64,000 bases of DNA from an uncultured bacterium (GTDB lineage: Bacteria > Krumholzibacteriota > Krumholzibacteriia > Krumholzibacteriales > Krumholzibacteriaceae). Each line of letters begins with the position of its first letter. Position 1 is the stretch's first letter. The stretch is from contig CAWBAN010000004.1 of NCBI GenBank assembly GCA_963786935.1, positions 96,001-160,000 of the forward strand. The letters run 5' to 3'. The notes under the pieces were generated by a model. It made no database searches and had not been told where the DNA came from. It was given only the letters and a program-made list of their open reading frames with translations. Below are positions 44,503-62,428 of this stretch, in pieces. Both the position numbers and the translations under genes were made by a program.

Positions 44503-44991
44503 ATGAGAACGTGCCTCACGATGGCGGTTCTTTTCGTGATCCTCGTCGCGGCTTCCGCATCCGCGTTCGGCGGCCCGAACCTCGCCGGAACTATGGAAGC
44601 CCGCAAGATCGTCATGGGAACGGAAAACAAGGAAATCGCGGTCTCGGCCGAACAGGTGAAACCGCAGGACAAGATCGAGTACACGCTGCGCTACCGGAAC
44701 ATCGGCGACGCGTCGGCCTCCGGCGTGAGCCTCGTCGGCCCGATACCGGCAGGCACCGCGTACCTGAACGAGACGGCGACCGAGAGCGATGCCATGCGGC
44801 CGCTCTTCAGCATCGACGGCGGCGCGAGCTTCCATAAGGCGCCCGTCATGTACGTCGTGAAGAACGAAAAGGGAGAAGACGAGCGCAAGGTGGCTACCCC
44901 CGACATGTACACGCACGTCATGTGGAACGTCGCGAGCGCTCTCGAGGTCGACAAGGAAGTGGCGGTCTCCTATCGCGTGCAGGTGAAGTGA
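44503..44991 (+). CDS. Secreted single truncated DUF11-like domain protein (gene A; putative chaperone/cap)
   Basis: Signal peptide; VKPQDKIEYTLRYRNIG, LVGPIPAGTAY, FSIDGG, ends VSYRVQVK. Confidence 0.75.
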   Translation: MRTCLTMAVLFVILVAASASAFGGPNLAGTMEARKIVMGTENKEIAVSAEQVKPQDKIEYTLRYRNIGDASASGVSLVGPIPAGTAYLNETATESDAMRPLFSIDGGASFHKAPVMYVVKNEKGEDERKVATPDMYTHVMWNVASALEVDKEVAVSYRVQVK

Positions 44992-45050: not shown

Positions 45051-47741
45051 ATGAGTAAGATTCGGCTCACGGCGGCCCTCGCGCTCGTCGCGCTCTTCGT
45101 CTGCGCTGCCGCGCAGGCGCAGACGCCGGCGGGCACGACGATCCGGAACCAGGCCTCGGCGCGGTTCCAGGATCTCTCGGGCAACTCGTACACCGCGACC
45201 TCGAACGAGGTCATCACGATCGTCCTGCCGGTATACGGCGTTTCGATCCTCCCGGACGACTCGGGGGAGACTCCCCCCGTCACGCCGGCGATGATTCAGA
45301 ACGCCATTCCCGGCCAGACGCTCTACTACAGCTATAACCTGACCAATACGGGTAACGACGCCGACACCTACGCGCTGGCGCCGCTCCTCGACGCCGCCAA
45401 TTCGACGATGACCCTCGGGCTCGGGAGCATCACGATCTACCACGACGTGAACGGCAACGGCGTGCTGGACGGCGGCGAGCCTACGATCTCTTCCGGCGGG
45501 GCGCCGGGGAACCTCGGTCCAATCGCTGCCGGTGCGACAGTGAGTATCCTGGTTTCCTACCAGGTTCCCCCGGCCGCCCTCGCCGGCGAGGTTGCGTACG
45601 TCGGCGTTCAGGGAACCTCCGCCGGAGATCCGGCCCGCATCGATACCCGCAACTACCATATGACGACCGTCGTGAGCGACGCCTCGCTCACCGCGTCGAT
45701 GTCCGGACTCCCGGCGAACGTGAATCCGGGCGCCGTGATCACCTACGCGATCAACGGCTCGAACGTGGGCACGCAGGCGGCCCACGGCGTCCTCGTGGCC
45801 TCCGTCGGTCTCACGGGCGTCTTCATCTATGACGTGCTCCCGACCGATCCGACGACGGGTCTTCCGCTCGCGATCTCCGGCACGCCTTCGGGCTCGCCGG
45901 CGGGCGGGACCGTGTTGTACTTGCCCGCGGGAAGCCCGATGGTCGGCGCTCCCGAGACGTGGGCATGGCAGGCCGTGGCGGGCGCCGGCGACCTCGCCGT
46001 CGCGTACGTCACGAACGGCAATCTCGCGATCGGCCAGTTCTACAACCTGACCTACGACCTCGTCGTACCGTCGACGATGCGCGCCGGCATCATCAACAAC
46101 AGCGGCGCCGTCGCGTACGTGGACAACAATCCGGGCACGCCGGATCCGATCACCGTCACGACGAACAACACGCAGATCACCGTGAACGCGATCGCCAACG
46201 TGCTCGTCGGCCCGTCGGGTCTGCCCGCGGCCGGCACGCCGCCGAACTACGACGACGACATGCAGTCGGTGCCCGTGGCCTACGCGAACACGACCGTGTC
46301 GTTCACGAACACCGTGCGGAACGACGGGAACGCCGCGGACGCGATCAACATCGCGCTCGACGGCGCCTCGACGATTCCCGGGGGATGGAGCGTCCTGTTC
46401 TTCCGGAGCGACGGCGTCACACCGCTCACCGATACCGGAACGGACGGCATTCCCGACGTCGGCGCGCTCAATCCGGGCGCGACGAGAGACTTCATCGTCC
46501 GCATCATCATCCCGGGCGGCGCGAGCGCCGGCGGCCCGTATGACGCCGTCATCCGCGCCAACTCGACGAACAATCCGCTCGAGTCGAACCTGACGACCGA
46601 CCGGATCACGTCGGTGCAGCCCGCGGCCGTCGACATCGGCAACTTCGACGGTCTGCCCGGCACGAACAACGCGACGGTCAACATCAACGCGAATCCAGCC
46701 ACGAACGCCGACTTCGCTCTCGACGTGATCAACACGGCTGGCTCGGCGGACAACTATTCGCTCACCTCGACCGCTCCGGCGGGCTGGACCGTGACGTACT
46801 TCAACGACGCGAACGGCAACGGCCTCCTCGATCTGCCCGAGCTCGCCCCGATCGCCGGCATCGGCCCGGTGGCGGCAGGCAGCGAGGCGCACGTCATCGC
46901 GCGCGTGGCGGTTCCCGTCGGGGTCGGCCCCGGCGTGAACAACGTCGTCTTCCGCGCGACCTCGACGAACAACGGCGCGATATTCGACCAGATCACGGAC
47001 ACCGTGACGATTCTCGCCACGCCGTCCGTCGATATCGCTCCGAACCGCAACGGAACGGGCACCGCCGGCGGCACGGTTCGTTACCAGCACACGGTGACGA
47101 ACACCGGCAACGTCGACGACACGTTCCTGCTGAGCGCCGTGAGCTCCAACGGATGGAGCTACGCGTTCTTCGATCTCGCGAACAACGCGATTGCGGCGGT
47201 CAACCTCGTCGCCGGCGCGTCCCAGGACGTCGTCGTGCAGATTTCGATCCCGGGCGGCGTGCCGAACGGAACGATCGAGACCGGCACGGTCCGCGTCACG
47301 GGGAGCGGCACGGGCGCGACCGACGCGGTCACCGACGTCACGACGATCGTGGCCGGTAACCTCGTGCTCGTGAAGTCGGTCAATCCGGCCGGCGCGCAGC
47401 TGCCGGGCACCGAGCTCACGTACCGGACCGATTATTCGAACGTGGGCACCGCGGATCTCACCGCGATCGCCATCTACGACGCGATTCCCGCGTGGACCCA
47501 GTATCGCGTCGGCTCCGCCACCGTCGGGACTCTCGCGGCCGGCATCACCGGTATCGCGATCGAGTTCTCGAACGACGGCGGCGCGACGTGGACCTACACG
47601 CCGGTGAGCGGCGGCGGCGGCGCCCCGGCGAACTTCGACGCCGGTGTCACGAACGTCCGCTGGACGCTGACCGGCAATCTGGCCGGCGGCAGCGGCACGG
47701 CCGACGGCGTCGGCTTCATCGTAAGGATCGTCGCCGAATAA
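45051..47741 (+). CDS. Secreted multi-Ig/DUF11 repeat protein (gene B; putative shaft pilin)
   Basis: Signal peptide; N-terminal TPAGTTIRNQA...SNEV; repeated N(T/D)GN..D domains; DxNGNG loops; C-terminal LVKSV...PGTELTY...YDAIP domain. Confidence 0.8.
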   Translation: MSKIRLTAALALVALFVCAAAQAQTPAGTTIRNQASARFQDLSGNSYTATSNEVITIVLPVYGVSILPDDSGETPPVTPAMIQNAIPGQTLYYSYNLTNTGNDADTYALAPLLDAANSTMTLGLGSITIYHDVNGNGVLDGGEPTISSGGAPGNLGPIAAGATVSILVSYQVPPAALAGEVAYVGVQGTSAGDPARIDTRNYHMTTVVSDASLTASMSGLPANVNPGAVITYAINGSNVGTQAAHGVLVASVGLTGVFIYDVLPTDPTTGLPLAISGTPSGSPAGGTVLYLPAGSPMVGAPETWAWQAVAGAGDLAVAYVTNGNLAIGQFYNLTYDLVVPSTMRAGIINNSGAVAYVDNNPGTPDPITVTTNNTQITVNAIANVLVGPSGLPAAGTPPNYDDDMQSVPVAYANTTVSFTNTVRNDGNAADAINIALDGASTIPGGWSVLFFRSDGVTPLTDTGTDGIPDVGALNPGATRDFIVRIIIPGGASAGGPYDAVIRANSTNNPLESNLTTDRITSVQPAAVDIGNFDGLPGTNNATVNINANPATNADFALDVINTAGSADNYSLTSTAPAGWTVTYFNDANGNGLLDLPELAPIAGIGPVAAGSEAHVIARVAVPVGVGPGVNNVVFRATSTNNGAIFDQITDTVTILATPSVDIAPNRNGTGTAGGTVRYQHTVTNTGNVDDTFLLSAVSSNGWSYAFFDLANNAIAAVNLVAGASQDVVVQISIPGGVPNGTIETGTVRVTGSGTGATDAVTDVTTIVAGNLVLVKSVNPAGAQLPGTELTYRTDYSNVGTADLTAIAIYDAIPAWTQYRVGSATVGTLAAGITGIAIEFSNDGGATWTYTPVSGGGGAPANFDAGVTNVRWTLTGNLAGGSGTADGVGFIVRIVAE

Positions 47742-47932
47742 GCGGCTCGAAAGAGGCTGTGGCGGGGCGGCATCGGCCGCCCCGCCAACGGCAACTCTCT
47801 CGGGCAGGAGATGCAGCCAAGAGAAGAGAGAAGAATTTGAATAACGAGCTCCGCGGAGTCACAAGCACCCCGAACTGGAGGATGATTCGTTAAGGCGGAT
47901 CAGCCTCTAGTTCGGTTTCTGGAGGTAACAGG

Positions 47933-50900
47933 GTGAGACGGCCATCGACCAGAAGTTCGAGAAGGGGGCAACTCCTTTTCTTGCTTGCGGTTGCGTGGCT
48001 CGCCCTCTTGCCTTCGCTTTCCATGGCCGCCATTCCACCCGCCGGACAGGCAATCACGAGCAGATCGCTCGCGTACTACGAGCGGAGCGGCTCGCGGTGG
48101 AGCGCCTATTCGAACGAAATCACCGTGAACGTTTTGGCCCTGTACGGCCCGGTCGTCGAGCCGAACGGGACGGTTTCCGCGCCGGGCGCCGTCGTCCGCG
48201 CCTTCGCCGGGGAGACGGCGACCTTCGCCTTCAGCCTGAGAAACGCGGGGAACGCGGAAGACGCATTCACCCTGGCGCTCGCGTATCCCGCGCCTTCGGA
48301 CTTCGTTCCGGCGCAGTCGCGCATCTACCTCGACATCGACGGGGACAGCCTCGTCGATCCGGGGGAGCCCGCGGTCACGGATGTCGGATCCCTCGCTTCG
48401 GGCGAGGAGGTCCGGCTCGTCGTTCAGGCCGTGCTTCCCGCCGGCCTCATGGGCGGGGAATCGGCGCACGTCAATCTCGTCGCCCGCTCGCAGGCGGACA
48501 CCTCCGCGTGGGACCGGGACAACGTCGTGAGAATCACGGCCCGCGACGAGGCCGCGGTCTCGCTCGCGCTCGCCGCGGACCGCTCGGCGGCGCTGCCGGG
48601 GGATACGATCGCCTTCACGCTCCAGTTCGCGAACACGGGAGAACGCGCCGCCGCCGGCGTCGTGCCGTCGGCGCCGATCGATCTGGCGGGATCGACGGAG
48701 GGAGCCGACTACGTGAGCGGCTCGGCGGGCTCGTCCGTCGCGGGGAGCTTCGAATACTACGACGCCGCCTCTTCCGCCTGGGTCGCCGCGCCTCCTCCCG
48801 TCGATCGAATCAAGGGCATCCGCCTGCTGGCCGGCGCTCTCGCGCCGGGGGCCGCGGGGAATCTCACGTTCCGGGTGCGTGTGCGGGACGGGAGGGCGGC
48901 GGGCGTCCTGCGCGAAACGGCGGCGGTCGATTACACGGGCGGAAACGCGCAGCCGTACCGTCTCGCGTCGAACGAAGTGACCGTCACCATCGGTCGCGTG
49001 AGCTCGATCGCGATCGGCCCGCGGGGAAATCCGCTGGCCGCCTCGGGAAGCGCCGACGATCGGGTCTTTGCGAACGTCGACGGGAGCAGCGATTCGTATA
49101 CGCTCTGGCATGAGCTCCTGAACGGCGGCAACTTCGCCGACAGCGTGCGCATCGTCCTCGCCGATTCGTCCCTCATCCCGGCCGATTGGGCGATCGAGTT
49201 CGTCGATTCCAACGGCGCGCCGTTTCCGGGCGAGTCCGGGTACCGCGCGGCGGTCGGCACGGTTCCGAGCGGACGCTCGACGATCGTCGGCCTGCGGCTG
49301 AGCGCGACGGCGGAGAGCCTCAGGAGATTCGACGGGCGACAGCTCGTGTTCGCCCTCGAGGCGTCGTCGATCTTCTTCGAGGAGGCGTCGGACCGGGTGG
49401 AGGACGTCCTCGTCAAGGCGAGCATTCCGCTCGTTTCGATCGAGCAGTCGATCCGCGAGCCGACGGCGCAGATCGGCGATATCCTGAGCTTCATCGTGAC
49501 GGTCGAGAACCTGACGGAGGAAACCGCGCTCGACAGCGTCGTCGTGACGGAGGCGCTTTCGCCGGGGCTCGCCTTCGCCGCGGGGAGTCTCGTGCCGCGG
49601 ATCGCGGGGAACGATCTCGAGTGGACGCTCGACGGGCTCGAGCCGGGGGAGCGGCGCGAGATCGTGTTCCGCGCGCGGGTCAAGACGGGGCAGGAGACGG
49701 GGAGGCTCGTGAGCTCGGCGTACGTGCGCGGCGTGACGGATACGGGTGAGCCGGCGTTCGATGGCCCGGCGAGCGCCTCGATCCTCATCGTCGAAGGAAT
49801 ATTCACGCGGCGCGGGATCATCGCGGGCGGCGTGTTCGCGGACGCCGATTCGAACGGCGCCTGGGACGAGGGCGAGCGCGGCGTATGCGGCGTGTCGGTC
49901 TTCATCGACGACGGCACGTACGCGGTGACCGATTCGTTCGGGCTCTATTCGATTCCGGGCGTCGTCGAGGGACGGCACGTCGTGCGGATCGATCCGGCGT
50001 CCGTCCCCGACGGCTTCGAGCCGGGCGCGAGCGGCTTCTACGGGTTCGGCGTCGCCGGCGAGATGCTCGTCGATCTCGCCCCGTCGGGGCACCGGCGCGC
50101 CGATTTCGCGCTCGTCCGGTCGAGCGGCCCGTCACGCGAAGCGGGCGGCGCCGCCGCGGCCGATTCGTCCGCCTCGACGGCGCGCGAGGCGGCCGCCGTC
50201 GCCGCGGCGGAGTCCGGGAGACCGGGGCAGTCGTTCAACGCGATCACCATTCCGAGCTCGCACTTCGAGGCGGGAGAGGCCGCGATCGGAGGCATTCCGC
50301 TGAATCGCGTCGCCGCCCTGTCGCTCTGGATCAAGGATCACCCGGGCTGGAGCATCTACATCGAGGGGCACACCGACAGCATTCCCATCGCGAGCGCCGC
50401 GTATCCGTCGAATCTCGAGCTTTCGATCGCCCGCGCCCGCTCCGTGTTCCAGCTCCTCCGCATGAACGGCATTCCCGAGGAACGCATGGATTACACGGGC
50501 TGCGGCTCGCGGGAGCCGGTCGCGTCGAACGCGGGCGAGGAAGGGCGCGCGCTCAACCGCCGCGTCGAGATACTCATCGTGCCGCCCGCCGATTACACCG
50601 GCGGGGATCCGGGGCTCCCCGAGATCCTCGAGCGCTCCGAGCACAAGGAGTACGCGCTGGCCGATTCGACGGGAATCTGCGCGGGCATCGTCGCGCCGGC
50701 CGAGGGAACGATCTTCTTCTCGCGCGGCGAGATCGACGTCGAAATCGTCTCTCCCCTCGGCTCCGACGTCGAGCTCTACGTGAACGGGCTCCCGGTCGGC
50801 AAGGACCGGATCGGCCTCAAGAAGATCGACATCGCCAGCGGCATCTTCGGCTCGATCTTCTACGGCGTGAAGATCGCCGAGGGCAAGAACGACATCCTCG

Positions 50901-53683
50901 TCGTGTGCCGCGAGTACGGCGGCACGCGCAACACGTGCGTCCGGCACGTCTACCTCGCGGGACAGCCGAAGCTCATCACGCCGGAGCGCGAGATCGTCAC
51001 GCTCCCCGCCGACGGCAAGACGGCGGGCGAGATCGTCTTCCTCGTGAGCGACGGGAACGGGCTCCCGGTCCGCGACGGCATTTTCGTCACGGTGACCGGC
51101 GCCGAGGATATCGTCGCGGGTCTCGACGCGAATCCGCAGGTGCAGGGCATCCAGGCGGCGACCGCCAACGGCCGCGTCATCGTCGCGCTCCCGCCGATGC
51201 GCGATTCGCGGAAAGAGCGGATCGGCGTGGCGCTGAACGGCGTCTCAGCCGGCGCCCGCGCCGTGTACGAAGCGCCGCTCCGGAACTGGTTCCTCTTCGG
51301 CCACGGCGAAGCGGAGCTCGGCTACAGCGATCTCACCGGAACGGGGAGCACGGAGCGCCTGATGGAAACGCAGCACGACGGCGCGTTCGTGGACGGAAAG
51401 CTCTCGTTCTACGGACAGGGCGAGATCAGGAGCGGGCATCTGCTCACGTGCGCCGTCGACACGCGGCCGGTCAAGGACGACATGCTCTTCAGGCGCATCG
51501 ATCCCGAGAAATACTATCCGATATACGGCGACGCGAGCGAGCTCAGGTTCAACGCCGCCTCGCGGAGCGGCACGTTCCTGCGGCTCGATCACCGCAGATA
51601 CGCGGCGATGCTCGGCGATTTCCGGACCGATTTCAGCGAGGCCGAGTTCACGAAATATCATCGCTCGTTCAACGGCGTCTCGGGAGAGGCGCGGTTTTCG
51701 CAGGGTGACGTGAAGGCGTTCGTCACGAAGGCCGATCAGGTTACCTATCAGGAGGAGTTCCGCGCCGAGGGGACGAGCGGCTTCTATTTCCTCTCCCACT
51801 ATCCGCTCGTCGAGAACAGCGAGAAGATCCGCGTCGAGGTGCGCGACCGGTACCGCTCCGAGCGCATCGTCCGCGTCGACTACAAGCTCGTCGAGCGCGA
51901 CTACGACATCAACTACATGGACGGGAGCATTCTCTTCAAAGAGAGCGTCCCCGCCTTCGACGAGAACCTGAATCCCGTGACGATCGTCGTGAGCTACGAA
52001 TGCCGCGGCGCCGGCGACAACAACTTCATCTACGGGTTCCGGTCGGCGGTGGGAGTGGCGGACAGTCTCGAGCTCGGGACGACCGCGGTGCTCGAGCAGG
52101 AGGGCGTGGAGAACTACACGCTCCTCGGATTCGATCTCGCGGGCCGGGTTTTCGAGGGGCTCGCGGTCGAGGGAGAGTTCGCGCACAGCGAGAAGTTCCT
52201 CCTCGGCGGCGGCACGGCGTTCCGCGTTCTCCTGCGGGACGAGGGGACCGGCGCCGTCCGGTGGAACGCGTACTACCGCGCGATCGACGAGAGCTTCTTC
52301 AACTCCTCGTTCTCGGGCGGCAAGACGGAGCTCGGGAGCGTCAAGATCGGCGGCGAGCTCGATTGGCGGCTGAACCGGGGATTCGGGGCGAGCGCGCAGG
52401 CGTACCGCCACACGTATCAGGAGCGGGACGAGCGGAAGGACTACGCGGATCTCGTGGCGCGGTACGCGGCCGGCGTTCTCGAATGGCGGGCGGGCTTCGC
52501 CGCGGCCGGCCACAGCGACACGCGCGACGGGGATCAGGCGTCGGTGCTCATGCTCACCGGCGTCTCGTACAAGAACGCGGGGACCACGGCGGAGGCCGGA
52601 TGGGATCAGATCCTCGCGGGGGACGAGGTCGACGATTACCCGAACCGGCTCCAGGCGAAGTTCTCGAAGCGTGTCTGGCGCGGCGTCGCGGCGGCGCTCA
52701 AGTACGAGTACCGCACCGGCAGCCGCTCGGGAACGCGGCACTTCACCCAGATCGGGCTCGAATCGAATATCACCGAGAGCATGCAGGCGTACACGCGGTA
52801 TCAGGTCGACGGCGCGATGGGGGGCCAGCGCGGCCAGGCGACGATGGGGATCAGAAACCGGTTCGTCCTCGCCGCGGATCTCACCGGGACCGTCGCGGTG
52901 GAAAAGCTCGCGACGGTGAGCGGGAACGCGGCGGAGGATTACCTGTCGATTTCGACCGGCGCGCTGTACACGCCGGCGCATAAGGATTATCGCGTGAAGG
53001 GGAACTACGAGATCAGGATCGAGCCGCTGCGCGCCAAGCACCTCGCCGAGCTCGCGGCGATCAAGCGCCTGAGCGAGCGGTGGAGCGCCATCGTGAAGGG
53101 GGATCTCTGGTTCTCCGACGAGGAGATCGAGAACAACCACGTCAAGGGGAGCTCGACGATCGGGATCGCCGTGCGGCCGCATTCCTCGCGGACGGTCGAG
53201 GTCCTCTCCCTCGTCAAGACGGCGTACGAGAAGAACAGCCCCGCGCATCCGGAAGCGGTCGACAAGGAGAACCTCGCGTCGATCGAGGCGACGTGGACGC
53301 CGAGCCCGGCGTGGGAGCTCGAGGGCAAGGTCGCGGCGCGCCGGATCGAAAACTCGTTCAGGGACTACTCGGCGGACGCGTCGGCGTTCCTGTATCAGGT
53401 GCAGGCGATCCGCGTGATCGCGCGGAAGTGGGACGTCGCACTCAAGGCGCGCTTCGTGCATCAGAACGAGACGGCGACGACGAGCTACGGCGGAGGCCTC
53501 GAGCTCGGCCGTCTCGTCACCGGCAACCTGTGGGTCGGCGCGGGATACGATTTCGGGGGACACGAGGATCCCGACGCGCCGGTCAACGGCTTCGAGCGCA
53601 GGGGATTCCATTTCGGCATGAGGCTCAAGTTCAACGAGAAGATCCTCGAGTACTGGGACGGCGGCAGGGAGGTCGGCGAATGA
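47933..53683 (+). CDS. Large outer-membrane protein: Ig/DUF11 repeats, SdrD-B-like domain, OmpA-like domain and C-terminal beta-barrel (gene C; putative base/usher)
   Basis: GGAGG RBS and GTG; GGVFADADSNGAWDEGE; IEGHTDS..NLELSIARA..NRRVEI; about 800 aa of amphipathic strands ending GFHFGMRLKF. Confidence 0.82.
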   Translation: MRRPSTRSSRRGQLLFLLAVAWLALLPSLSMAAIPPAGQAITSRSLAYYERSGSRWSAYSNEITVNVLALYGPVVEPNGTVSAPGAVVRAFAGETATFAFSLRNAGNAEDAFTLALAYPAPSDFVPAQSRIYLDIDGDSLVDPGEPAVTDVGSLASGEEVRLVVQAVLPAGLMGGESAHVNLVARSQADTSAWDRDNVVRITARDEAAVSLALAADRSAALPGDTIAFTLQFANTGERAAAGVVPSAPIDLAGSTEGADYVSGSAGSSVAGSFEYYDAASSAWVAAPPPVDRIKGIRLLAGALAPGAAGNLTFRVRVRDGRAAGVLRETAAVDYTGGNAQPYRLASNEVTVTIGRVSSIAIGPRGNPLAASGSADDRVFANVDGSSDSYTLWHELLNGGNFADSVRIVLADSSLIPADWAIEFVDSNGAPFPGESGYRAAVGTVPSGRSTIVGLRLSATAESLRRFDGRQLVFALEASSIFFEEASDRVEDVLVKASIPLVSIEQSIREPTAQIGDILSFIVTVENLTEETALDSVVVTEALSPGLAFAAGSLVPRIAGNDLEWTLDGLEPGERREIVFRARVKTGQETGRLVSSAYVRGVTDTGEPAFDGPASASILIVEGIFTRRGIIAGGVFADADSNGAWDEGERGVCGVSVFIDDGTYAVTDSFGLYSIPGVVEGRHVVRIDPASVPDGFEPGASGFYGFGVAGEMLVDLAPSGHRRADFALVRSSGPSREAGGAAAADSSASTAREAAAVAAAESGRPGQSFNAITIPSSHFEAGEAAIGGIPLNRVAALSLWIKDHPGWSIYIEGHTDSIPIASAAYPSNLELSIARARSVFQLLRMNGIPEERMDYTGCGSREPVASNAGEEGRALNRRVEILIVPPADYTGGDPGLPEILERSEHKEYALADSTGICAGIVAPAEGTIFFSRGEIDVEIVSPLGSDVELYVNGLPVGKDRIGLKKIDIASGIFGSIFYGVKIAEGKNDILVVCREYGGTRNTCVRHVYLAGQPKLITPEREIVTLPADGKTAGEIVFLVSDGNGLPVRDGIFVTVTGAEDIVAGLDANPQVQGIQAATANGRVIVALPPMRDSRKERIGVALNGVSAGARAVYEAPLRNWFLFGHGEAELGYSDLTGTGSTERLMETQHDGAFVDGKLSFYGQGEIRSGHLLTCAVDTRPVKDDMLFRRIDPEKYYPIYGDASELRFNAASRSGTFLRLDHRRYAAMLGDFRTDFSEAEFTKYHRSFNGVSGEARFSQGDVKAFVTKADQVTYQEEFRAEGTSGFYFLSHYPLVENSEKIRVEVRDRYRSERIVRVDYKLVERDYDINYMDGSILFKESVPAFDENLNPVTIVVSYECRGAGDNNFIYGFRSAVGVADSLELGTTAVLEQEGVENYTLLGFDLAGRVFEGLAVEGEFAHSEKFLLGGGTAFRVLLRDEGTGAVRWNAYYRAIDESFFNSSFSGGKTELGSVKIGGELDWRLNRGFGASAQAYRHTYQERDERKDYADLVARYAAGVLEWRAGFAAAGHSDTRDGDQASVLMLTGVSYKNAGTTAEAGWDQILAGDEVDDYPNRLQAKFSKRVWRGVAAALKYEYRTGSRSGTRHFTQIGLESNITESMQAYTRYQVDGAMGGQRGQATMGIRNRFVLAADLTGTVAVEKLATVSGNAAEDYLSISTGALYTPAHKDYRVKGNYEIRIEPLRAKHLAELAAIKRLSERWSAIVKGDLWFSDEEIENNHVKGSSTIGIAVRPHSSRTVEVLSLVKTAYEKNSPAHPEAVDKENLASIEATWTPSPAWELEGKVAARRIENSFRDYSADASAFLYQVQAIRVIARKWDVALKARFVHQNETATTSYGGGLELGRLVTGNLWVGAGYDFGGHEDPDAPVNGFERRGFHFGMRLKFNEKILEYWDGGREVGE

Positions 53684-56600
53684 CGGCACGGCGCATCATG
53701 ACGATCCTCGCCGCCGCGGCGCTCGTGCTGTGCGTCCGGCCGGGCCCCGCGCGCGCCGGCGAGCTCGTGCAGAACGGCGGCTTCGAGACGGGCGGCTTCT
53801 CCGGCGGATGGGTCGACGGCGCGGGGCAGCTCTCGAGCGGGCAGACGAATCCGGCCTGGGCGGACCACCTGGTGACGCTCGATCTCCCGTTCGCTGGCAA
53901 CTACTCGGCGCTGATCGGATTCAAGTACGCGCAGATTCGAGGGAACCGGTTCGGATTCATCTATCAGGACGTAGCGATCCCGTCGAACGTCTCGCGCGCG
54001 GACCTCTTCTTCAAGTTCCGCCAGCAGGGCTGGGACGGCAACTTCTACGATCCGTTCCGCATGCAGATCCGCGCCACGAACAACGCGGTTCTCGCGACGG
54101 TGATCGAATACTCGTTCGCCGAGGCGAACCATCTCTTCAAGGATTCGGGCTGGCTCGACGACAACAACGCCGTGCCCGTCGGCTATTCGATGACCGCCTA
54201 CGCGGGGCAGACGGTGCGGCTGTACTTCTATCAGGAGAACAGCTTCAACAACTTCTACGAGACGTGGACGTACATCGACGACGTCTCGCTCGTCTTCCGG
54301 CGGTGGGTCGACCTCGCCGTCGACGGAAACGGAAACGACCTCTTCGGCGCCGCGGGGACCGGCGCCGGCGGCTCCTCGATCAAGAGCGCCGAGCAAGGGG
54401 AGACGCTCTCCTATATAATGGATATAGAGAACGAGGGGCCCGACGGCGATTCCTACCGTCTCACGGCGAATCCTCCCGCCGGCTGGACGGCGTCCATCCG
54501 CTACAACGGCACGATCTATCCCTTCCCGTGGAATTCGCCCGTGATCCCCGCCGGCTCGAAGATCCAGGCGGAAGTCGTGCTGACCGTTCCTTTCGGCGCG
54601 GCGGTGAACGGCTACTCGACGATCGTCGACGCGGTCTCGAGAAATTTCGCGAACCGCTACGACAGCGTCCGGCTCGGCACGAACGTCGTGCCCGCCGATT
54701 TCCTCGCCGACGCGATCATCGACGCGAACGGGTTCGGCGTGATCGATCCGGCGGGCGGGGGCGGCATCGCGTACCGCGAGGCGGTTCCGGGCGCGCAGGC
54801 GAGCTACGTGCTCGAGGTGTTCAACGAGGGCGTTCAGGCCGATTCCTTCCGGATCCGCTGGAGCGCGGCGGCGCCCCTCACGATCGCCGTGCTCGACGGC
54901 GGCACGGTCCGCGCGCGGGCCTTCAGCACGGCGCTCGTCCCGAGCATGGGCTCCGTGTCGTTCACGGTGCGGGCGACGGTCCCGGCGTCGACCCTCGGCG
55001 GCGACTACACGAGCATCGTGTACGCGACGTCGCTCACCGACACGCTCAAGCGGGACGCCGTGCGCGCGGTCACGCGCGTCCTGGCGCCGAAGGTCGACAT
55101 GATCATCGGCGGGAGCGGCGACGGCATCATCGACGCGACCGGCGCCGGCCTCGGCGGCGCCACGACCGTCGCGGCGGGAGTGGGAACGACCATCTCGTTC
55201 CCCTTCATTCTCCAGAACGAGGGGGCCGTCGCCGATTCCTTCACGCTCTCCTGGACGAGCCCGGGCGCCGGCTGGACCGCGCGCGTCAACGACGGCGCCG
55301 CGGACCACGCGCTCACCTGGCGGACGCCGACGATGGCGCCGTTCAGCGCGCGCAATCTCGTGCTCATGGTGACGGTGCCGGCGGGGGCGTCGTACGACAC
55401 CTACAAATCGATTCTCAACGCCGTTTCGTCGGTTTCGGCGCCCGCGCGCGAGAGCGTCACGGCCTCGATATCCGTCTCGAGCGGAAACGAAATCGATCTC
55501 ATCATCGACGGGAACGGGGACAACGTCTACGGGTACCTCGGCACGGCGCTCGGCGGAAGCTCGGTCAAAACGGCTACGCCGGGGGACACGGTCACGTTCG
55601 CGATCGCCGTCCAGAACGAGTCGGGGGAGAATCTCTTCGACATCTGGTGGAACGGTCCCCCCGGATGGGACGTCCTCATCGGGGACTCCACGTCGACGAT
55701 GCGCCGCGTGACGGCGGGGCTCTACACGCTGACCGTGCGCGTTCCGGCCGGCTGCGCGGGAGGGACGTTCGACGTCGTCGTCGACGGCGTGAAGACGAAC
55801 AAACGGTATTACGTCGACAGCGTGCGGGGCCGCCTCGTCGTCTCGGCGCCGCGCGTCGTCGACGCCCTCATCGACGGGAACGGCGACGGAGCGTTCGGCG
55901 GGACGGGGACCGGCGCCGGCGGCTCTTCCTCGCAGACGACGACCGCCGGGAGAACGGTGCGATTCACCGTCGAGCTCCAGAACCAGGGGAGCGCGCCGGA
56001 GAGCTACCGGGTGAGCTGGAACACGATCCCCGATTACATCGCCACGCTGCAGGGATACGCGTCGCCGTACCTGACGGCTTCCGTCGCGCCGGGCGGGGCG
56101 GCGCTCCTCAGCTTCGCCGTGCGGGTTCCCTACACGGCGGCGGCGGGGGATCTCGACTACGTCCTCGACGTCGTTTCGACGATCGACACGGGCAACGTCG
56201 AGAGCGTGCGCGCGCGCGTTCACGTCAATCCCCCGCCGCGCGCCGACCTCGTGATCAACGGGGACGGCGCGTTCGATTCGGCGCCTCCGGGCTCGGGGGA
56301 CGGGGGACGGGCGCTCGTGTTCGGGAGCCCCGGCACCGAGGTGACCGCCGTGCTCGAGCTCTGGAACCGCGGCGGGTTCGCCGATTCGTTCCGCGTCACG
56401 TGGAGCCCGCCCGCCGGGTGGCCCGCCGGTTCGGTCGTGCTCTCGGACGGCTCGGGGGATCACGCGTCCCCGTACCTCGTCGGCGTCATCGATCCGGGCG
56501 AATCCCGGGTGTTCACCGTGCGCGTGTTCATCCCCGCCGGCGCCGCGCTGCGGACGCCGATCATCATCGACGGCATCGCGCTGTCGCGCGATCTCGAGGA

Positions 56601-57657
56601 CTCGGTGACCCTCGAGGCCGCGATCAGCTCGTTCGTCACGGGCGTCGTGTTCAACGACAAGGATCATGACGGGGCTCTGGACGCGGGCGAAGAGGGATGG
56701 ATCGGCGTCACGGTGACCCTCTCCGATCCGGGCGGCCCGCTCGTCCGGCAGACGGACGGATCGAGCTCCTATCTCTTCGAGGTGCCGGCCGGCGTCGCGC
56801 GCGAGCTCGCGGAGACGACTCCCGTCGGCATGATCTCGCTTTCGCCGGACGTCGTTTCGCTCCCGGCCCCCGCTCCCGGAGAAACGCTCCGCGTCGATTT
56901 CGCGGACGTCCGGGTGCCGGCGATCGCGCCGGCGAACAACCTGAGCTGTCCGGCGGGAAGCTTCGTCGATTTCCCGCATGTGATCACGGCGGGAACGGGC
57001 GGGCAGGCCGCGGTCGCCGCAACGCTGCCCGCCGGGTGGATCGAAGCCTTCTACCGGGACAACGACGGAAGCGGCACGATGAGCGCGGGCGATTCACTGC
57101 TCACCGCCGCGGACCTCGCGCTCGATCCCGATTCGGCGCGATTCGCGGCGGTGCCGATCGTCATGCGCGTCTTCGTGCCGGCGCAGACGAGCGCGGGGAC
57201 GCTCGCTTCGATCCCCGTCACGCTGCGCCAGACGCTTTCGGGCACGGCGATCGAGGTGGAGGTCACCGTCCTCGACCGGCTCCTCGTGCTCGCGCAGGCG
57301 AGCGGCCTGCTCAATCTCGCCAAAGTCGTGGATCTCGCCGAGGCGCATCCGGGCGACACCATGACCTACTCGATCACGTTCTCCAATCCCGGCACGGAAG
57401 GAGTACGAGAGATCGAGATCATCGATCCGCTGTCGTCGTCGGTCGATCTCGTTCAGGGAGCGTTCGGGCCCGGCAGGGACGTCGAGTGGTTGAAGGACGG
57501 CGTCCCGGTCTATCTCACCGCCGACCCGCTGGACGCCGACGAGGCGATGTACGTGGCGGCCGACGGCACCCTGCGCGTGATCCTCTCGAGGCTCGCGCTC
57601 TACACGCTCGAAAGCGGCGCGACGGGACGAATCACGTATCGAGTCAGGATCCGCTGA
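53680..57657 (+). CDS. Secreted protein: N-terminal CBM-like domain, Ig repeats, SdrD-B-like domain and C-terminal DUF11 (gene D; putative tip adhesin)
   Basis: ATGA overlap with gene C; signal peptide; ELVQNGGFETG..W..YIDDVSL; repeated D(L/A)(I/A)(I/V)DGNG; LAKVV..PGDTMTY..IIDPL..ITYRVRIR. Confidence 0.8.
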   Translation: MTARRIMTILAAAALVLCVRPGPARAGELVQNGGFETGGFSGGWVDGAGQLSSGQTNPAWADHLVTLDLPFAGNYSALIGFKYAQIRGNRFGFIYQDVAIPSNVSRADLFFKFRQQGWDGNFYDPFRMQIRATNNAVLATVIEYSFAEANHLFKDSGWLDDNNAVPVGYSMTAYAGQTVRLYFYQENSFNNFYETWTYIDDVSLVFRRWVDLAVDGNGNDLFGAAGTGAGGSSIKSAEQGETLSYIMDIENEGPDGDSYRLTANPPAGWTASIRYNGTIYPFPWNSPVIPAGSKIQAEVVLTVPFGAAVNGYSTIVDAVSRNFANRYDSVRLGTNVVPADFLADAIIDANGFGVIDPAGGGGIAYREAVPGAQASYVLEVFNEGVQADSFRIRWSAAAPLTIAVLDGGTVRARAFSTALVPSMGSVSFTVRATVPASTLGGDYTSIVYATSLTDTLKRDAVRAVTRVLAPKVDMIIGGSGDGIIDATGAGLGGATTVAAGVGTTISFPFILQNEGAVADSFTLSWTSPGAGWTARVNDGAADHALTWRTPTMAPFSARNLVLMVTVPAGASYDTYKSILNAVSSVSAPARESVTASISVSSGNEIDLIIDGNGDNVYGYLGTALGGSSVKTATPGDTVTFAIAVQNESGENLFDIWWNGPPGWDVLIGDSTSTMRRVTAGLYTLTVRVPAGCAGGTFDVVVDGVKTNKRYYVDSVRGRLVVSAPRVVDALIDGNGDGAFGGTGTGAGGSSSQTTTAGRTVRFTVELQNQGSAPESYRVSWNTIPDYIATLQGYASPYLTASVAPGGAALLSFAVRVPYTAAAGDLDYVLDVVSTIDTGNVESVRARVHVNPPPRADLVINGDGAFDSAPPGSGDGGRALVFGSPGTEVTAVLELWNRGGFADSFRVTWSPPAGWPAGSVVLSDGSGDHASPYLVGVIDPGESRVFTVRVFIPAGAALRTPIIIDGIALSRDLEDSVTLEAAISSFVTGVVFNDKDHDGALDAGEEGWIGVTVTLSDPGGPLVRQTDGSSSYLFEVPAGVARELAETTPVGMISLSPDVVSLPAPAPGETLRVDFADVRVPAIAPANNLSCPAGSFVDFPHVITAGTGGQAAVAATLPAGWIEAFYRDNDGSGTMSAGDSLLTAADLALDPDSARFAAVPIVMRVFVPAQTSAGTLASIPVTLRQTLSGTAIEVEVTVLDRLLVLAQASGLLNLAKVVDLAEAHPGDTMTYSITFSNPGTEGVREIEIIDPLSSSVDLVQGAFGPGRDVEWLKDGVPVYLTADPLDADEAMYVAADGTLRVILSRLALYTLESGATGRITYRVRIR

Positions 57658-58810
57658 CGACGTCGATCACCGTCTTCACGACGTAATCGATTTCCTTCTC
57701 CGTCAGCTTGGGATAGAGCGGAAGGCTGATCGTGCGGGCGCCGATATCCTCGGCGACGGGAAACGCGCCCGGCCGGTAGCCGTAGCGTTCGCGGTAATAC
57801 GTCATCAGGTGCACGGGGTAGAAGTTCACCGAAACGCCGACGCCGCGGTTCTGGATCTCCTCGAGGATCCGGTCGCGCCGCGCGCGGTCGACGAGGATCG
57901 TGAAGAGGTGGCACGCGTGCCGCGCCTCGGGCCGCCTCGTGTGGATCTCGATGCCGTCGACGTCGCGGAACGCGTCCGCGTAGCGCTCGTAGATCTCGGC
58001 GCGGCGCGCGAGGAAGCCCTCGAGCTTCCCGAGCTGCTCCACGAGAATCGCCGCGTGGATGTTGTCCATGTTGTATTTCCAGCCGAAGACGTCGACGTCG
58101 TACCGCTCGAAATGGTTCGAGTATCGCTCCTGGGCGCTCTTGTCGAAGCCGTGGAGCCGGAGCTTTTTCAGGAGCTCCGTCTTCGCCGCGTTCCGCGACG
58201 AGATCGCGCCTCCCTCTCCCGAGGTGATGTTCTTGGTCGCGTAGAAGCTGAAGCACGCGAAGTCGCCGTAATGTCCCGGTTTCCTGCCGTTCCATTCCGA
58301 CTCGAGCGAGTGGGCGGCGTCCTCGACGACGACGAGCCCGCGCTTCCGCGCGATGTCGCCGATGGCCGTCATGTCGCACATCTGTCCGTAGAGATGGACG
58401 GGCATGATCGCCCGCGTCCGATCGGTGATCGCGGCCTCCACGCACGCGGGGTCGATGTTCGCCGTCGCGCGATCGACGTCGGCGAACACGGGGGTGGCCC
58501 CCGCCATGATGACGCTGTTCGCCGTGCCGATGAAGGTGACCGGCGTGGTGATGACCTCGTCCCCTGGCCCGATTCCCGATGCCAGAAGGGCGAGCTGCAT
58601 CGCCGCCGTGCAGCTCGTCACGGCCACGGTGGAGGGAAGGCCGAGATAGGAGGCGAGCCCCTGCTCGAACTCGCTGACCTCGTCTCCGGTCGTGAGGAAG
58701 AGCGAGCGGAACACGCGCTCGACGCGCTGGAGCTCCTCCTCGCCGATGTTATGCTTGCAGTACTCGACTTTTCGTTTCAATGCGCCTCGTCTCCCGACCC
58801 GGTGCGTCAT
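57644..58810 (-). CDS. DegT/DnrJ/EryC1/StrS (ArnB-like) sugar aminotransferase
   Basis: SCTAAM, GPGDEVIT, PVHLYG, EDAAH, FSFYATKNITSGEGG, ISLPLYP. Start may be TTG 58780. Confidence 0.92.
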   Translation of the reverse strand: MTHRVGRRGALKRKVEYCKHNIGEEELQRVERVFRSLFLTTGDEVSEFEQGLASYLGLPSTVAVTSCTAAMQLALLASGIGPGDEVITTPVTFIGTANSVIMAGATPVFADVDRATANIDPACVEAAITDRTRAIMPVHLYGQMCDMTAIGDIARKRGLVVVEDAAHSLESEWNGRKPGHYGDFACFSFYATKNITSGEGGAISSRNAAKTELLKKLRLHGFDKSAQERYSNHFERYDVDVFGWKYNMDNIHAAILVEQLGKLEGFLARRAEIYERYADAFRDVDGIEIHTRRPEARHACHLFTILVDRARRDRILEEIQNRGVGVSVNFYPVHLMTYYRERYGYRPGAFPVAEDIGARTISLPLYPKLTEKEIDYVVKTVIDVVSGS

Positions 58811-61800
58811 CGCAGGTAGAGGATCTTGCGGGTCTGGGAGAACTTGCCCGCCTTGATGCGGCAGAAATACACGCCGGAGGCCACGCCGCGCCCCGCGCCG
58901 TCCGTGCCGTTCCAGAGCACCGAGTAGCGCCCCGGTCCACGGACCGTCCGCTCGAGCGTCGCGATGGAGCGCCCCGCGGGATCGAAGATCGCGATCTCGA
59001 CGTCGCAGCGCTCACCGATCGAATAGAAGATCGACGTCGTTCCGTTGAAGGGATTCGGATAGTTTTGCTCGAGCGCGGTCGCGAATACCGGCGGGACGGG
59101 GCCCTCTTCGTCCCCGCCGTCGCCGACGCCGATCTTGTTCCTGATGGCGAAGAGAGAGTCGCTCTCGTCCAGCGCCGCGAGGCTGCCCAGGTCGAATGCA
59201 AGGATCTTCACGAGACACGAATCCGAAAGGGACGGAGGTATGATCCACGAATAGGACGAGTCGGCGGGCAATCCGTGCGCGATGCGCTGGTACGTGTCCC
59301 CCGCGTCGTCGGAATAGTAGACGCTGACCGAATCGGCGTCCTCCCCGCCCGTCACGGTCCATTGGACGCGGATCGTATCTCCGACCTCGAAGATCTCACC
59401 GCCGTTCGGATAGACGACGGTCGCGATCGGAGTAAATTCCCAGATCCGCAGCCCGGTCTCGTCGGAGTATCCGCCGCCGTAGCCGGTCGCGTTGACGGCG
59501 GAGACGCGGTAGTAATGAAGCCCCGGGGGCGGGGAAACGAAGAGGAAGCACGTCGGCGCCCCGACGCTCGCCAGGTAGTTCGCCGCGTCCGGCACGAATC
59601 CGGCCGCCGTATCGGAATACACCGCGTACGAGGTCACGTCGCCGGGGACGGCGCCCCAGACGAGATAATAGTCGGGATTCGCCGGCGCGGGATTGGCGCC
59701 GAGCCACTTGACGTACTCGGGGGCCGCCATGAGGGCATCGGGGCCTCCGAAGGCGCCCTGATCGGCGCGCGATCCGTCCGGATCGGCCGGCGACGCGGGA
59801 TCGCCGGTGTCGATTCCTCCCGAGTGCACGAGGAGGTGATAGTCGAACGAGGTCGTATCCGCGTAGTGCGGATGCCTGCTCGTGTTCGTCGCGTCCGCCC
59901 CCGCCGCCACGATGTTGACCGGCGTGTTGCCGAAGGCGTTGTTGTACCGGAACGTGACGTTGGCGAGGCTGTTCGTCTGGAAGCCGTTCTTCGTTCCGTA
60001 CGTGAACAGGTTGTTCTTGACGGCGAGCGAGGGGGTCGCCGCGAGGAACATGTTCCCGCCGCCGTAGAGACCGCGGTTGCGGTCGAAGGTGTTGTTCGTC
60101 ACGCCGCCCCAGCAGCTGTCCGCGTACATGCCGCCGCCGATGACGTTCGAGCGATTCAGCGTGACGACGCAGTTCGAAACGTCGAGGGCGCTGAAGCGCG
60201 TGTAGATGCCCGCTCCGAACGAGGAGCTCGTATTCTGCTTCACGAACGCGCGGGAGAGCGTGAGGGCGGAACGCTCGGCGCAGATCCCGGCCCCGACGTC
60301 GAGACCGTCGTTGAGGGCGATCGTGTCGCCGTCGATCGTCGCGGGGCTCAGGAAAAGGTAGACGCCCGCGCCCTTGCGGTAGCCGTCGTTGTCTTGGATA
60401 ACGTTCCCCTCGAGCGCCGCCGTCGCGTGGAGCGCGTAGACGCCGCCGCCGTGCCTCGCCCCGCTGTATTCCGGATCCGGCCGGCACCCGGTGATACGGT
60501 TCCCCCGGATCGTCGCGTTCGCCTCGTAGAGATAGACGCCGCCGCCGCACTGCGCGAGGCAGCCCTCGATCCGGTTCCCCTCGATGAGCGGGGCGCCGCC
60601 GTAGCAGGCGATCCCGCCGCCGCCGCTGAATTCGAGCACGGGGGCGACACCGCACGAATCGATGCGGTTGTTTCTGATGACCGGGGACGACTGATAGCTG
60701 AGGATCGCGCCGCCGTAGATGCCGTTCGCGGGCATCGGGAGGAACGTGCCGGATCCGCCCGTCAGCCGGAAGCCCTCGATGCCGCAGATGCCGGCCGCAA
60801 CGTTCATGAAGCTGACGAGGCTTCCGCCCGCCTGAATCTTCGTGACGTACGTTTCGGGATCGCGGACGGTGAAGTCGTCGTTCCATCCGCCGAAGAGGTA
60901 CACAGCCGTTTCGACGGTGATCGCCTGATTGTAGGTGTCCCCCCTGACGATGATCGTATCTCCCGGCACGCCGGCGTTCACCGCATCCTGGATCGTCGTC
61001 GCGGCCCACGCGGGGAGGCTGTAGGGGAATATGTTCCCACCCGATTTCGAGACATAGCGGTACGGCTCGCCCCTAATCGTGAAGTTGACGTCGCTCATGT
61101 CGTAACCGCCGACGTCCCCGTTCCAGTACGCGACGACCTTGATACGAGCGGTGTTCACGGGGAGATCGGGAACCTCCCATGTGTACGAGGTGGAGAGGCC
61201 GGAGAGGCCCGAGGCGATGGTGTGGTCGTACGTCGCCCCGCCGTCGAGGCTCAAGAGTATGCTGATGGAGTCAGGCGTCTGCCGCGATGTGTACCACGTG
61301 ATGTCGTAGGAACCCCCGAAGATCTCGGCCACGTCCCATACTTCTCCGTGGTTCGGAGCGGTGACGTGCACGAGCACGTCGGTCGGCTGATAGACGATCT
61401 GATAGGCGTACGTGCCGATGTTGCAGACGCCGTACTTGATGTACCCGAAGCCCCCCATGCCCCAGCCCTCGCCCCAGCTGTTCTTGATGATCCACGCGCC
61501 CTGCCCGCTGCACTGGTTGTCGTCCCAGCCGACGATGAGGACGGCGTGGTTGACGCTCCCCGTCACGGTTCCGTTGTTGTAGCAGCCGCTCGTGTAGTCG
61601 TAGAAATCGTCGTCCACGTAGAACGCGCTCGAGACGGGACCGGTCTGAAGCGCGGCCTTGATCGCGTCCACGGTGTTCGTCACGTCCATGAAATCGGATA
61701 TCTTCGAAACGACGGAGCAGCCGAACGTCGCCGTCCTGCACGGCCGATCGCTTCGCACTTCATAGGGGTAGCACAGCTCGGTCCCCGATCCGGTTTCCAT

Positions 61801-62301: not shown

Positions 62302-62399
62302 GCGGAGCATTCTCCTTCGTGGATCGGGATGCCGTATCGATGCCTCAAATGCGTAATCTAAAGGTAAAGTAAGGCTTCTGAAGGCCGGAAGCCACAACA

Positions 62400-62428
62400 A
62401 TTATAGCAGAAAGCCCTCCGATCTCCAA
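62400..62428 (-). promoter_or_regulatory. Sigma-70-type promoter
   Basis: Minus strand TTGGAG-17 nt-TATAAT with extended -10 TG. Confidence 0.55.

Follow-up and report, generated by a model that had tools for sequence, protein, structure and literature searches.

A split CLIPPER domain and a probable intermolecular isopeptide joint in a putative surface-fibre operon of an uncultured Krumholzibacteriaceae bacterium

The stretch of DNA analysed here, called the window, comprises the 64,000 nucleotides from position 96,001 to 160,000 of contig CAWBAN010000004.1 (GenBank assembly GCA_963786935.1, an uncultured member of the Krumholzibacteriaceae), and it carries a four-gene operon. We propose, with a probability of roughly 65%, that the second gene of this operon, gene B, codes for the main subunit of a surface fibre and that its subunits are joined covalently when the split CLIPPER isopeptide domain of one molecule is completed by another. 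A first-pass annotation of the same DNA had suggested an isopeptide triad divided between the two ends of B that could assemble only between molecules. This interpretation is supported by profile comparisons, a structural model, conservation, the composition of the operon and the lack of a sortase match in the genome, while the bond itself is deduced from the chemistry of the family.

Results

Gene B has a Shine-Dalgarno-like AAGGAGG upstream of its ATG and the following layout, given in window coordinates.

45051..47741, + strand: gene B, putative shaft subunit, 896 amino acids (aa), carrying a donor hairpin as well as an acceptor domain (coding part 45051-47738)
45051..45122, + strand: predicted signal peptide of B, residues 1-24, read from the sequence, with a putative cleavage site at its end (AAAQA/Q); residues 2-21 form a low-confidence helix in the AlphaFold2 (AF2) model
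45123..45248, + strand: donor beta-hairpin at residues 25-66 of B, equivalent by homology to the last two strands of a CLIPPER domain; the codon of Asn33 is at 45147-45149
45663..46205, + strand: domain 2 of B (residues 205-385), a complete internal CLIPPER-like domain, with D261 and N350 kept and Met217 at the Lys position
47343..47738, + strand: acceptor domain at residues 765-896 of B, consisting of a CLIPPER domain without its last two strands; the codon of Lys775 is at 47373-47375 and that of Asp810 at 47478-47480

Asn33 occurs in the context GTTIRNQASAR, Lys775 in NLVLVKSVNPA and Asp810 in AIAIYDAIPAW. The AF2 monomer of B, computed with 60 aligned sequences, has a mean predicted local distance difference test score (pLDDT) of 87.3 and a predicted template modelling score (pTM) of 0.40. 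It starts with an N-terminal hairpin (strands 30-33/35-40 and 46-50/54-58, pLDDT of the block 81-91), continues through five beta-sandwich domains (approximately residues 64-207, 216-378, 384-519, 526-654 and 660-766) and finishes with a last domain at 771-893, where K775 belongs to the strand 771-778 and D810 to the strand 803-811. Translation and model bear out the earlier placement of Asn33 (codon 45147) in an N-terminal hairpin and, together with Pfam, that of Lys775 (47373) and Asp810 (47478) in an incomplete last domain five domains away. The protein ends in ...GFIVRIVAE, with neither an LPXTG motif nor a membrane anchor.

The tail domain of B is matched by Pfam DUF7507 at residues 770-833 (36.3 bits, cut-off 27, covering only positions 3-67 of the 105 in the profile) and by TIGR01451, the DUF11 repeat, at residues 775-826 (29.6 bits, cut-off 24). 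In the tail domains of distant homologues, the DUF11 matches span positions 2-91 and 2-95 of 114 (65.6 and 67.5 bits), at which point the proteins end. A survey published in Protein Science in 2025 (PMC12617251) renamed DUF11 and DUF7507 as CLIPPER and CLIPPER_2, and it reports a crystal structure (9IFR) with an intramolecular Lys715-Asn806 bond and Asp748 as catalyst, a predicted triad Lys72/Asp112/Asn152 for DUF7507, and CnaA-like folds whose first strand bears the Lys and whose penultimate strand, in the opposing sheet, bears the Asn. The spacing between K775 and D810 in B is 35 residues, compared with 33 in 9IFR and 40 in the DUF7507 example of that survey. The Asn, however, is not on a penultimate strand of the tail domain itself, as the homologous Asn-bearing strands are found at residues 25-66. 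Because the profile matches of B end early and the Asn strand is located at the N-terminus, B represents a split form and is no standard CLIPPER member.

This division was resolved by profile-profile comparison with hhalign, using three column blocks cut from an alignment of 43 homologues that are 28-61% identical to B. The tail block (765-896) aligned with columns 4-137 of the 181 columns of domain 2 (205-385) at a probability of 99.2 and an E-value of 3.5e-19, which pairs K775 with the consensus Lys and D810 with D261. For the hairpin block (25-68), the alignment covered the last 43 columns of domain 2 (139-181 of 181; probability 96.7, E-value 3.4e-10), placing N33 on the conserved Asn (N350), and a control comparison of the hairpin block with the tail block gave a probability of 0.8. 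Between them, the two ends of B tile one CLIPPER-like domain with zero overlap and a one-column gap. All three residues fall on canonical CLIPPER (CnaA-like) positions, and their earlier assignment as an isopeptide Lys/Asp/Asn triad stands. Read from these profiles, the last CLIPPER domain of B is one without its two final strands, and those strands are at B's own N-terminus.

Other searches added little. Sequence searches of the PDB with the tail domain, the hairpin and a family profile (A3) found nothing relevant and yielded no direct alignment to 9IFR, and sialidase BNR-repeat matches of the tail domain in the PDB search were rejected as noise (E above 0.5). Foldseek with the whole B model retrieved generic multi-immunoglobulin (Ig) matches only, among them central-pair proteins, alpha-2-macroglobulin and complement, at template modelling (TM) scores of 0.13-0.22. 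A Pfam search with the 46-aa hairpins alone found no family.

The tail domain (B 765-896) was folded together with a second chain consisting of the hairpin and domain 1 (B 25-210) in three runs and with three controls. The interaction prediction score from aligned errors (ipSAE) was 0.85, 0.86 and 0.85 in the runs and 0.00 in the best of the controls; the mark used for this score, which is reached by 116 of 157 complexes of solved structure and by 2 of 215 pairs that were mismatched, is a rough guide here, our own alignment having been used. The runs had at least 95% of their contacts in common and the pLDDT of the partner was at least 90. On the side of the tail domain the interface comprises residues 769-777, 780-795, 801-816, 876-877 and 893-895, and on the side of the partner residues 25, 29, 31-42, 44 and 46-61, with domain 1 touching via residue 102 only. 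K775, D810 and N33 are all among the interface residues. The pairs with the lowest error (808:37, 806:39, 809:36 and 805:40) set strand 35-40 antiparallel to 803-809, and because of this register D810 would face residue 35 and N33 would face residue 812, which we infer would put D810 and N33 on the same side of the sheet in neighbouring strands. Residue 775 touches 51, and residue 773 has contacts to both 35 and 51, which would agree with a first strand on the opposite sheet. The model thus supports binding of the hairpin by the tail domain of another chain.

The three residues are strongly conserved. Among close relatives (B and 120 matches of 60-95% identity), K775 and D810 are present in 121 of 121 rows and N33 in 120, with one gap. 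A search of 1.84 billion 50%-identity representatives returned 2854 proteins at E<=0.001 and 309 at E<=1e-30. The hairpin directly follows the signal peptide in 109 of the best 150 representatives, and 105 of these 109 have Asn at the N33 column. The triad was counted in the 94 hairpin-bearing representatives of 700-1300 aa; 75 of them carry Asn/Lys/Asp and 6 carry Asn/Lys/Glu (together 81 of 94), and about 6 of the other 13 read as fragments or other architectures (P0201, P0249, P0184, P0247, P0251 and P0265). The intramolecular bond of domain 2 seems to have been lost in the lineage of B, in which the split triad is retained.

The genomic surroundings of B were compared across loci. A pattern scan built from the 10-row alignment A3, with one genome per species, gave 68 loci, to which the window was added. 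All stop-to-stop open reading frames (ORFs) of the loci and the window were scanned with a hidden Markov model (HMM) of the hairpin, an HMM of the tail domain, and phmmer with the anchor and tip proteins described below; ORFs were classified by simple rules, and those cut at contig ends drop out. The recurring order is a small acceptor-only protein (66 ORFs), the shaft (56), the anchor (37) and the tip (20), and in the window these genes occupy 44503-44991, 45051-47741, 47933-53683 and 53704-57657. In the shafts, which come from at least eight phylum-level groups, Asn is present in 55 of 56 and Lys with Asp likewise in 55 of 56, the single exception being a shaft that runs off its contig. The co-conservation of the three residues in homologues, which the first-pass annotation had proposed as a check, is accordingly seen in 81 of 94 representatives, 40 of the 43 aligned homologues and 55 of 56 shaft genes.

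The remaining elements of the operon in the window are listed here.

44503..44991, + strand: small acceptor-only protein, 162 aa, with a signal peptide and an incomplete CLIPPER domain but no donor hairpin
47745..47805, + strand: strong GC-rich stem-loop that immediately follows the B stop codon and lies within the 191 nt separating B from the anchor gene (minimum free energy -49.8 kcal/mol, z -5.98)
47933..53683, + strand: putative anchor or base protein, 1916 aa, with a signal peptide, a donor hairpin, Ig-like, DUF11 and SdrD_B domains, an OmpA-like domain and, at the C-terminus, a predicted giant beta-barrel (Pfam, NCBIfam and AF2)
48029..48142, + strand: donor hairpin of the anchor, approximately residues 33-70, PAGQAITSRSLAYY...SNEITVNV, aligned with the B hairpin (HMM match at ORF residues 49-89)
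50315..50560, + strand: OmpA-like peptidoglycan-binding domain of the anchor, residues 795-876 (Pfam OmpA E 3.5e-11; NCBIfam MotB and Pal-type matches)
51290..53680, + strand: predicted giant beta-barrel region of the anchor, approximately residues 1120-1916 (AF2 and Foldseek)
53704..57657, + strand: putative tip protein, 1317 aa, with a signal peptide, a series of NEW3/CARDB-like Ig domains and an acceptor domain at the C-terminus
57271..57654, + strand: acceptor domain of the tip, approximately residues 1190-1317, with Lys1207 (LAKVVD) and Asp1241 (IIDPLS), matching DUF11 positions 2-51 of 114

The tip protein stops where the Asn strand would begin and gave no match to the hairpin HMM; across the loci, Lys and Asp are present in 20 of 20 tips and the hairpin in none. 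Tips occur at the loci of the Krumholzibacteriota/Latescibacterota and at L063, a locus from a gammaproteobacterium. No Pfam family matched the 299 N-terminal residues of the tip in the window (53704-54600, + strand; GELVQNGGFETGGF...) at E<=1, and this N-terminus is the expected place for an adhesive or lectin head.

In 66 of 69 sources the gene of the small protein lies ahead of that of the shaft. The small protein can be aligned to the tail domains of both B and the tip, and it is matched by the acceptor HMM at ORF residues 47-167 and by Pfam DUF11 with 27.2 bits at positions 7-56 of 114. In the window it has Gly at the site of the catalytic Asp (LVGPIP compared with IYDAIP in B), while Lys is present in a column that is tentative. 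The Asp column is firm, but the Lys column follows a chosen motif (l-x-G-x-M-x-A-x-K), and a four-sequence alignment instead puts K775 on Ile45; with that proviso, only 7 of the 66 small proteins carry both Lys and Asp. The small protein could be a non-covalent cap or a hairpin chaperone.

Proteins of the anchor class are approximately 1900-2300 aa long and possess a donor hairpin, often an OmpA domain, and a C-terminal region like that of the window anchor, with no tail acceptor. Since the tip, the small protein and the anchor each carry one half only, complementation between molecules must occur for them. An AF2 model of anchor residues 901-1916 (33 aligned sequences, pLDDT 76.9, pTM 0.57) contains two Ig-like domains followed by approximately 780 residues of long antiparallel strands (model residues 220-1000). 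Its best bacterial matches in Foldseek were SlpA of Deinococcus radiodurans (8ae1 and 7zgx), LptD, MtrB and SprA, at TM scores of 0.2-0.3 only, and we read the modelled C-terminus as a giant outer-membrane-type barrel with no assigned family.

Two further observations concern the anchors. At five loci of the Deinococcota (L047, L049, L051, L061 and L062, from Thermaceae and Trueperaceae) the base is split into two genes, one for a donor-bearing protein of approximately 900-980 aa and one for a separate protein of 1400-1880 aa with partial likeness to the window barrel. Anchor hairpins carry Asn at 4 of 5 loci whose small protein has Lys and Asp, compared with 8 of 30 others (loci L021-L043 and more, which are related and not independent). 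As a weak hint, the small protein might pair with the anchor hairpin.

The stem-loop behind gene B was not equalled by any of 200 shuffled sequences. A comparable stem-loop (z < -3, 30 shuffles) follows the shaft gene in different phyla, at 43 of the 51 loci with 90 clean downstream bases, while z < -3 was reached by 2 of 136 random 90-nt windows of the same loci. This conserved stem-loop would fit a shaft subunit made in excess. The ratio of shaft to base may be set by it, through attenuation within the operon or stabilisation of the mRNA.

The genome that contains the window (3.26 Mb in 5 contigs, 96.5% complete) has such hairpin and acceptor parts only in this operon. It gave no match to sortase (PF04203), for which a control search matched three Gram-positive genomes, and none to the usher (PF00577) or PapD_N (PF00345) families, both of which matched in control genomes. 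In a sample of its phylum, 85 of 201 genomes have a match at E<=1e-20, and in its family 36 of 41. The hosts of the loci are Krumholzibacteriota/Latescibacterota, Thermaceae and Trueperaceae (Deinococcota), Spirochaetaceae (Spirochaetota), Lentisphaeria (Lentisphaerota), Opitutales (Verrucomicrobiota), Thermotogota, Gammaproteobacteria and one cyanobacterium of the Oscillatoriales. The Lentisphaeria loci include a cultured carrier, Oligosphaera ethanolica DSM 24202, and the question is therefore directly testable.

Elsewhere in the window, 58807-62400 (- strand) encodes a secreted protein of 1197 aa. By eye, it has an N-terminal motif (QRSCGSCWAF) that we take to be that of a papain-like Cys-peptidase and a C-terminus that presumably is a type IX secretion sorting domain.

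Discussion

In the mechanism that we propose, removal of the signal peptide would give B a new N-terminus consisting of the two-strand hairpin with Asn33, and the hairpin of one B molecule would insert into the tail domain of another, as modelled. By analogy with the chemistry of the CLIPPER family, Lys775 would then attack the side-chain amide of Asn33 with Asp810 as catalyst and ammonia would be released. The product would be an enzyme-free, covalent, head-to-tail chain in which the six-domain B forms the rod of the fibre. From the logic of the operon, a protein with an acceptor alone, the 1317-aa tip or else the small protein of 162 aa, would cap the far end, and the cell-side end would be formed by the donor hairpin of the 1916-aa protein with its OmpA domain and giant barrel. 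A fibre of n shafts, an anchor, a tip and a small protein would have n+2 acceptors for n+1 donors, so the tip and the small protein would be alternative caps, or the small protein would be a reversible holder of hairpins.

A wider proposal can be made only tentatively, and we think it is more likely wrong in some part than right as a whole. The operon may encode the components of a so far undescribed pilus class of bacteria with two membranes, without chaperone, usher homologue or sortase, which is polymerised by hairpin complementation and covalent trapping. The small protein, lacking the Asp, might hold hairpins reversibly in the periplasm until an acceptor with Lys and Asp captures them, and the fibre might be extruded through the giant barrel and end on it.

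The split domain and the head-to-tail complementation could be real and the joint non-covalent, with Lys, Asp and Asn kept for packing or as relics, an explanation that we consider unlikely but that has several observations on its side. The Asn column of the 37 anchors holds Ser in 19 (the window included), Asn in 13, Gly in 2, Ala in 1, Glu in 1 and a gap in 1, and the Asp column of the 66 small proteins holds Gly in 36, Asp in 18, Ile in 8, Asn in 2, Gln in 1 and Val in 1; from these substitutions it is clear that complementation does not need the triad. Asn-bearing anchor hairpins occur mostly in other phyla. Because the window anchor has Ser, it is possible that the joint nearest the cell is non-covalent in this lineage. 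Domain 2 of B retains D261 and N350 beside Met217 in place of Lys, so Asp and Asn are able to persist without a bond.

The model and the exceptions among homologues also count against a covalent joint. As for juxtaposition of the three residues in models, all of them lie in the interface, but the 25 contacts listed with the lowest error do not include the pair 775:33. Moreover, the docking score may merely reflect the fitting together of two halves of a learnt Ig fold. Real exceptions to the triad exist among the representatives, with residues at the Asn, Lys and Asp positions that read N/T/D in P0141, N/N/I in P0228, N/L/T in P0263, N/Q/E in P0192, T/K/D in P0206, S/K/D in P0260 and A/L/D in P0216. 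Among the 94 representatives, Asn and Lys were lost jointly once (P0216), Lys alone four times and Asn alone twice; these cases are too few, and the sequences not independent enough, to test a functional link.

Nevertheless, the pattern of conservation argues for the covalent joint. The split triad is kept better (40/43) than the full in-chain Lys/Asp/Asn triad of domain 2, which is intact in 32 of the same 43 sequences. In 8 of the 10 cases in which domain 2 no longer has its Lys, Asp or Asn is missing too, B being one of the two exceptions, which indicates that relics decay. Lys and Asp are kept together in every tip and in 55 of 56 shafts. The positions of the triad also match exactly those of the isopeptide domain proven by crystallography (PMC12617251).

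If the hairpin of B folded back into its own tail domain, the result would be a closed, six-domain ring monomer and no polymer, and the tip or the small protein would bind the anchor directly. The count of parts allows such an arrangement, in which B closes on itself and the anchor donor is matched with one acceptor-only protein, and the hairpin is predicted confidently (pLDDT 81-91) in the AF2 monomer with no second chain present. We regard it as improbable all the same, as the tip, the small protein and the anchor need complementation between proteins anyway, the conserved stem-loop after the shaft gene suggests an excess of B, and the pTM of 0.40 of the AF2 monomer is not suggestive of a fixed ring. 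Tandem Ig stalks are also usually extended. The reading of B as an ordinary monomeric fibrillar adhesin, with the hairpin as part of domain 1, the last domain as a short Ig variant and the triad as a coincidence, would suit the partial DUF7507 match and the generic multi-Ig matches that dominate the Foldseek results, but it has very little to recommend it when both pieces tile a complete domain in hhalign, the hairpin leaves domain 1 to dock and only residue 102 of domain 1 touches the tail domain in the complex model, the hairpin stands directly after the signal peptide in 109 of the best 150 representatives, and an operon with donor-only and acceptor-only partners is conserved.

If the bond of our preferred covalent reading does form, B would be the first case of an autocatalytic Lys-Asn isopeptide domain that is split in nature, and the fibre would be a covalent, sortase-free pilus in two-membrane bacteria, with an assembly route that is new beside those of chaperone-usher, type IV, type V and sortase pili. 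Such operons are widespread, being present in 85 of 201 sampled genomes of their own phylum and in several other phyla. The hairpin and the tail domain could also serve protein engineering as a natural CnaA-type tag/catcher pair and a self-polymerising rod.

Among known systems, B is related by sequence to the CLIPPER domains (PF01345, PF24346 and 9IFR; PMC12617251), with family matches above the cut-offs, Lys on the first strand, Asp approximately 35 residues later and Asn on a strand homologous to the penultimate one. CLIPPER proteins are likewise secreted multi-Ig surface proteins, some with OmpA-type anchors. However, CLIPPER domains have their triad in one domain and form an intramolecular bond, whereas in B the Asn and the last strands have moved to the N-terminus, so that the domain can be completed only by a distant or foreign segment. 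The passages of the survey that were searched contain no mention of 'split', 'SpyTag' or 'truncated'. Within the published full texts covered, we found no description of a split DUF11/CLIPPER domain or of such a pilus, and as most subscription journals lie outside that coverage, absence is not proven.

In chaperone-usher pili (type 1 Fim and P Pap) an incomplete Ig fold is completed by the N-terminal segment of a neighbour, as described in PMC11821415, the paper on tafi, and the proposed joint of B, supported by the profile tiling and the complex model, would be analogous. The 'DUF11' of that paper is DUF1102 and is unrelated. Further similarities of chaperone-usher pili are a tip without a donor, a shaft with both parts, a donor-only base terminator and an outer-membrane barrel encoded in the operon. 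In contrast, the donor of B is a two-strand hairpin and not one strand, its subunits are 896-aa rods of six domains, the base fuses a donor with an OmpA domain and a giant barrel, the genome has neither Usher nor PapD_N matches, and a covalent lock is probable.

The BsaA fibres of Clostridium perfringens, members of the TasA family, are assembled by 'exchange and lock' (10.1101/2024.11.04.621531). In that report, an N-terminal segment enters the sheet of a neighbour and an autocatalytic intermolecular isopeptide bond is formed, as we propose for B. It describes a TasA-like fold in a Gram-positive host, a need for SipW and type IV pili, and a single disordered loop or strand as donor, with neither a CLIPPER domain nor an outer-membrane barrel. 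In Pfam searches for the TasA/camelysin fold, B, the small protein and the tip gave DUF11-type and NEW3-type Ig matches only, with Peptidase_M73 at E 0.043 on the tail of the tip, and the four-gene operon has no peptidase gene and hence no counterpart of a SipW-type signal peptidase. The archaeal threads of Sulfolobus acidocaldarius (Saci_0406; PMC9715654) also combine donor-strand complementation with an intermolecular isopeptide bond and no known enzyme. Their bond instead runs from the alpha-amine at the N-terminus (Asp24) to Asn57 in subunit n+2, with no Lys-Asn-Asp triad, and the subunit has a single domain of unrelated fold in an archaeal host without an outer membrane.

Sortase-assembled Gram-positive pili (Spy0128, SpaA and RrgB) are covalent, isopeptide-linked fibres as well, with Lys-Asn-acid triads in CnaA/CnaB folds. 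Their inter-subunit bond, however, is made by an enzyme at LPXTG, while B ends in RIVAE and its genome gave no sortase match. SpyTag/SpyCatcher is a split isopeptide domain that rejoins spontaneously, but it is an engineered split of a CnaB domain, whereas B would be a natural split of a CnaA-like domain. In its proposed working, the system thus resembles chaperone-usher pili, BsaA fibres and archaeal threads, but it has no protein family in common with them.

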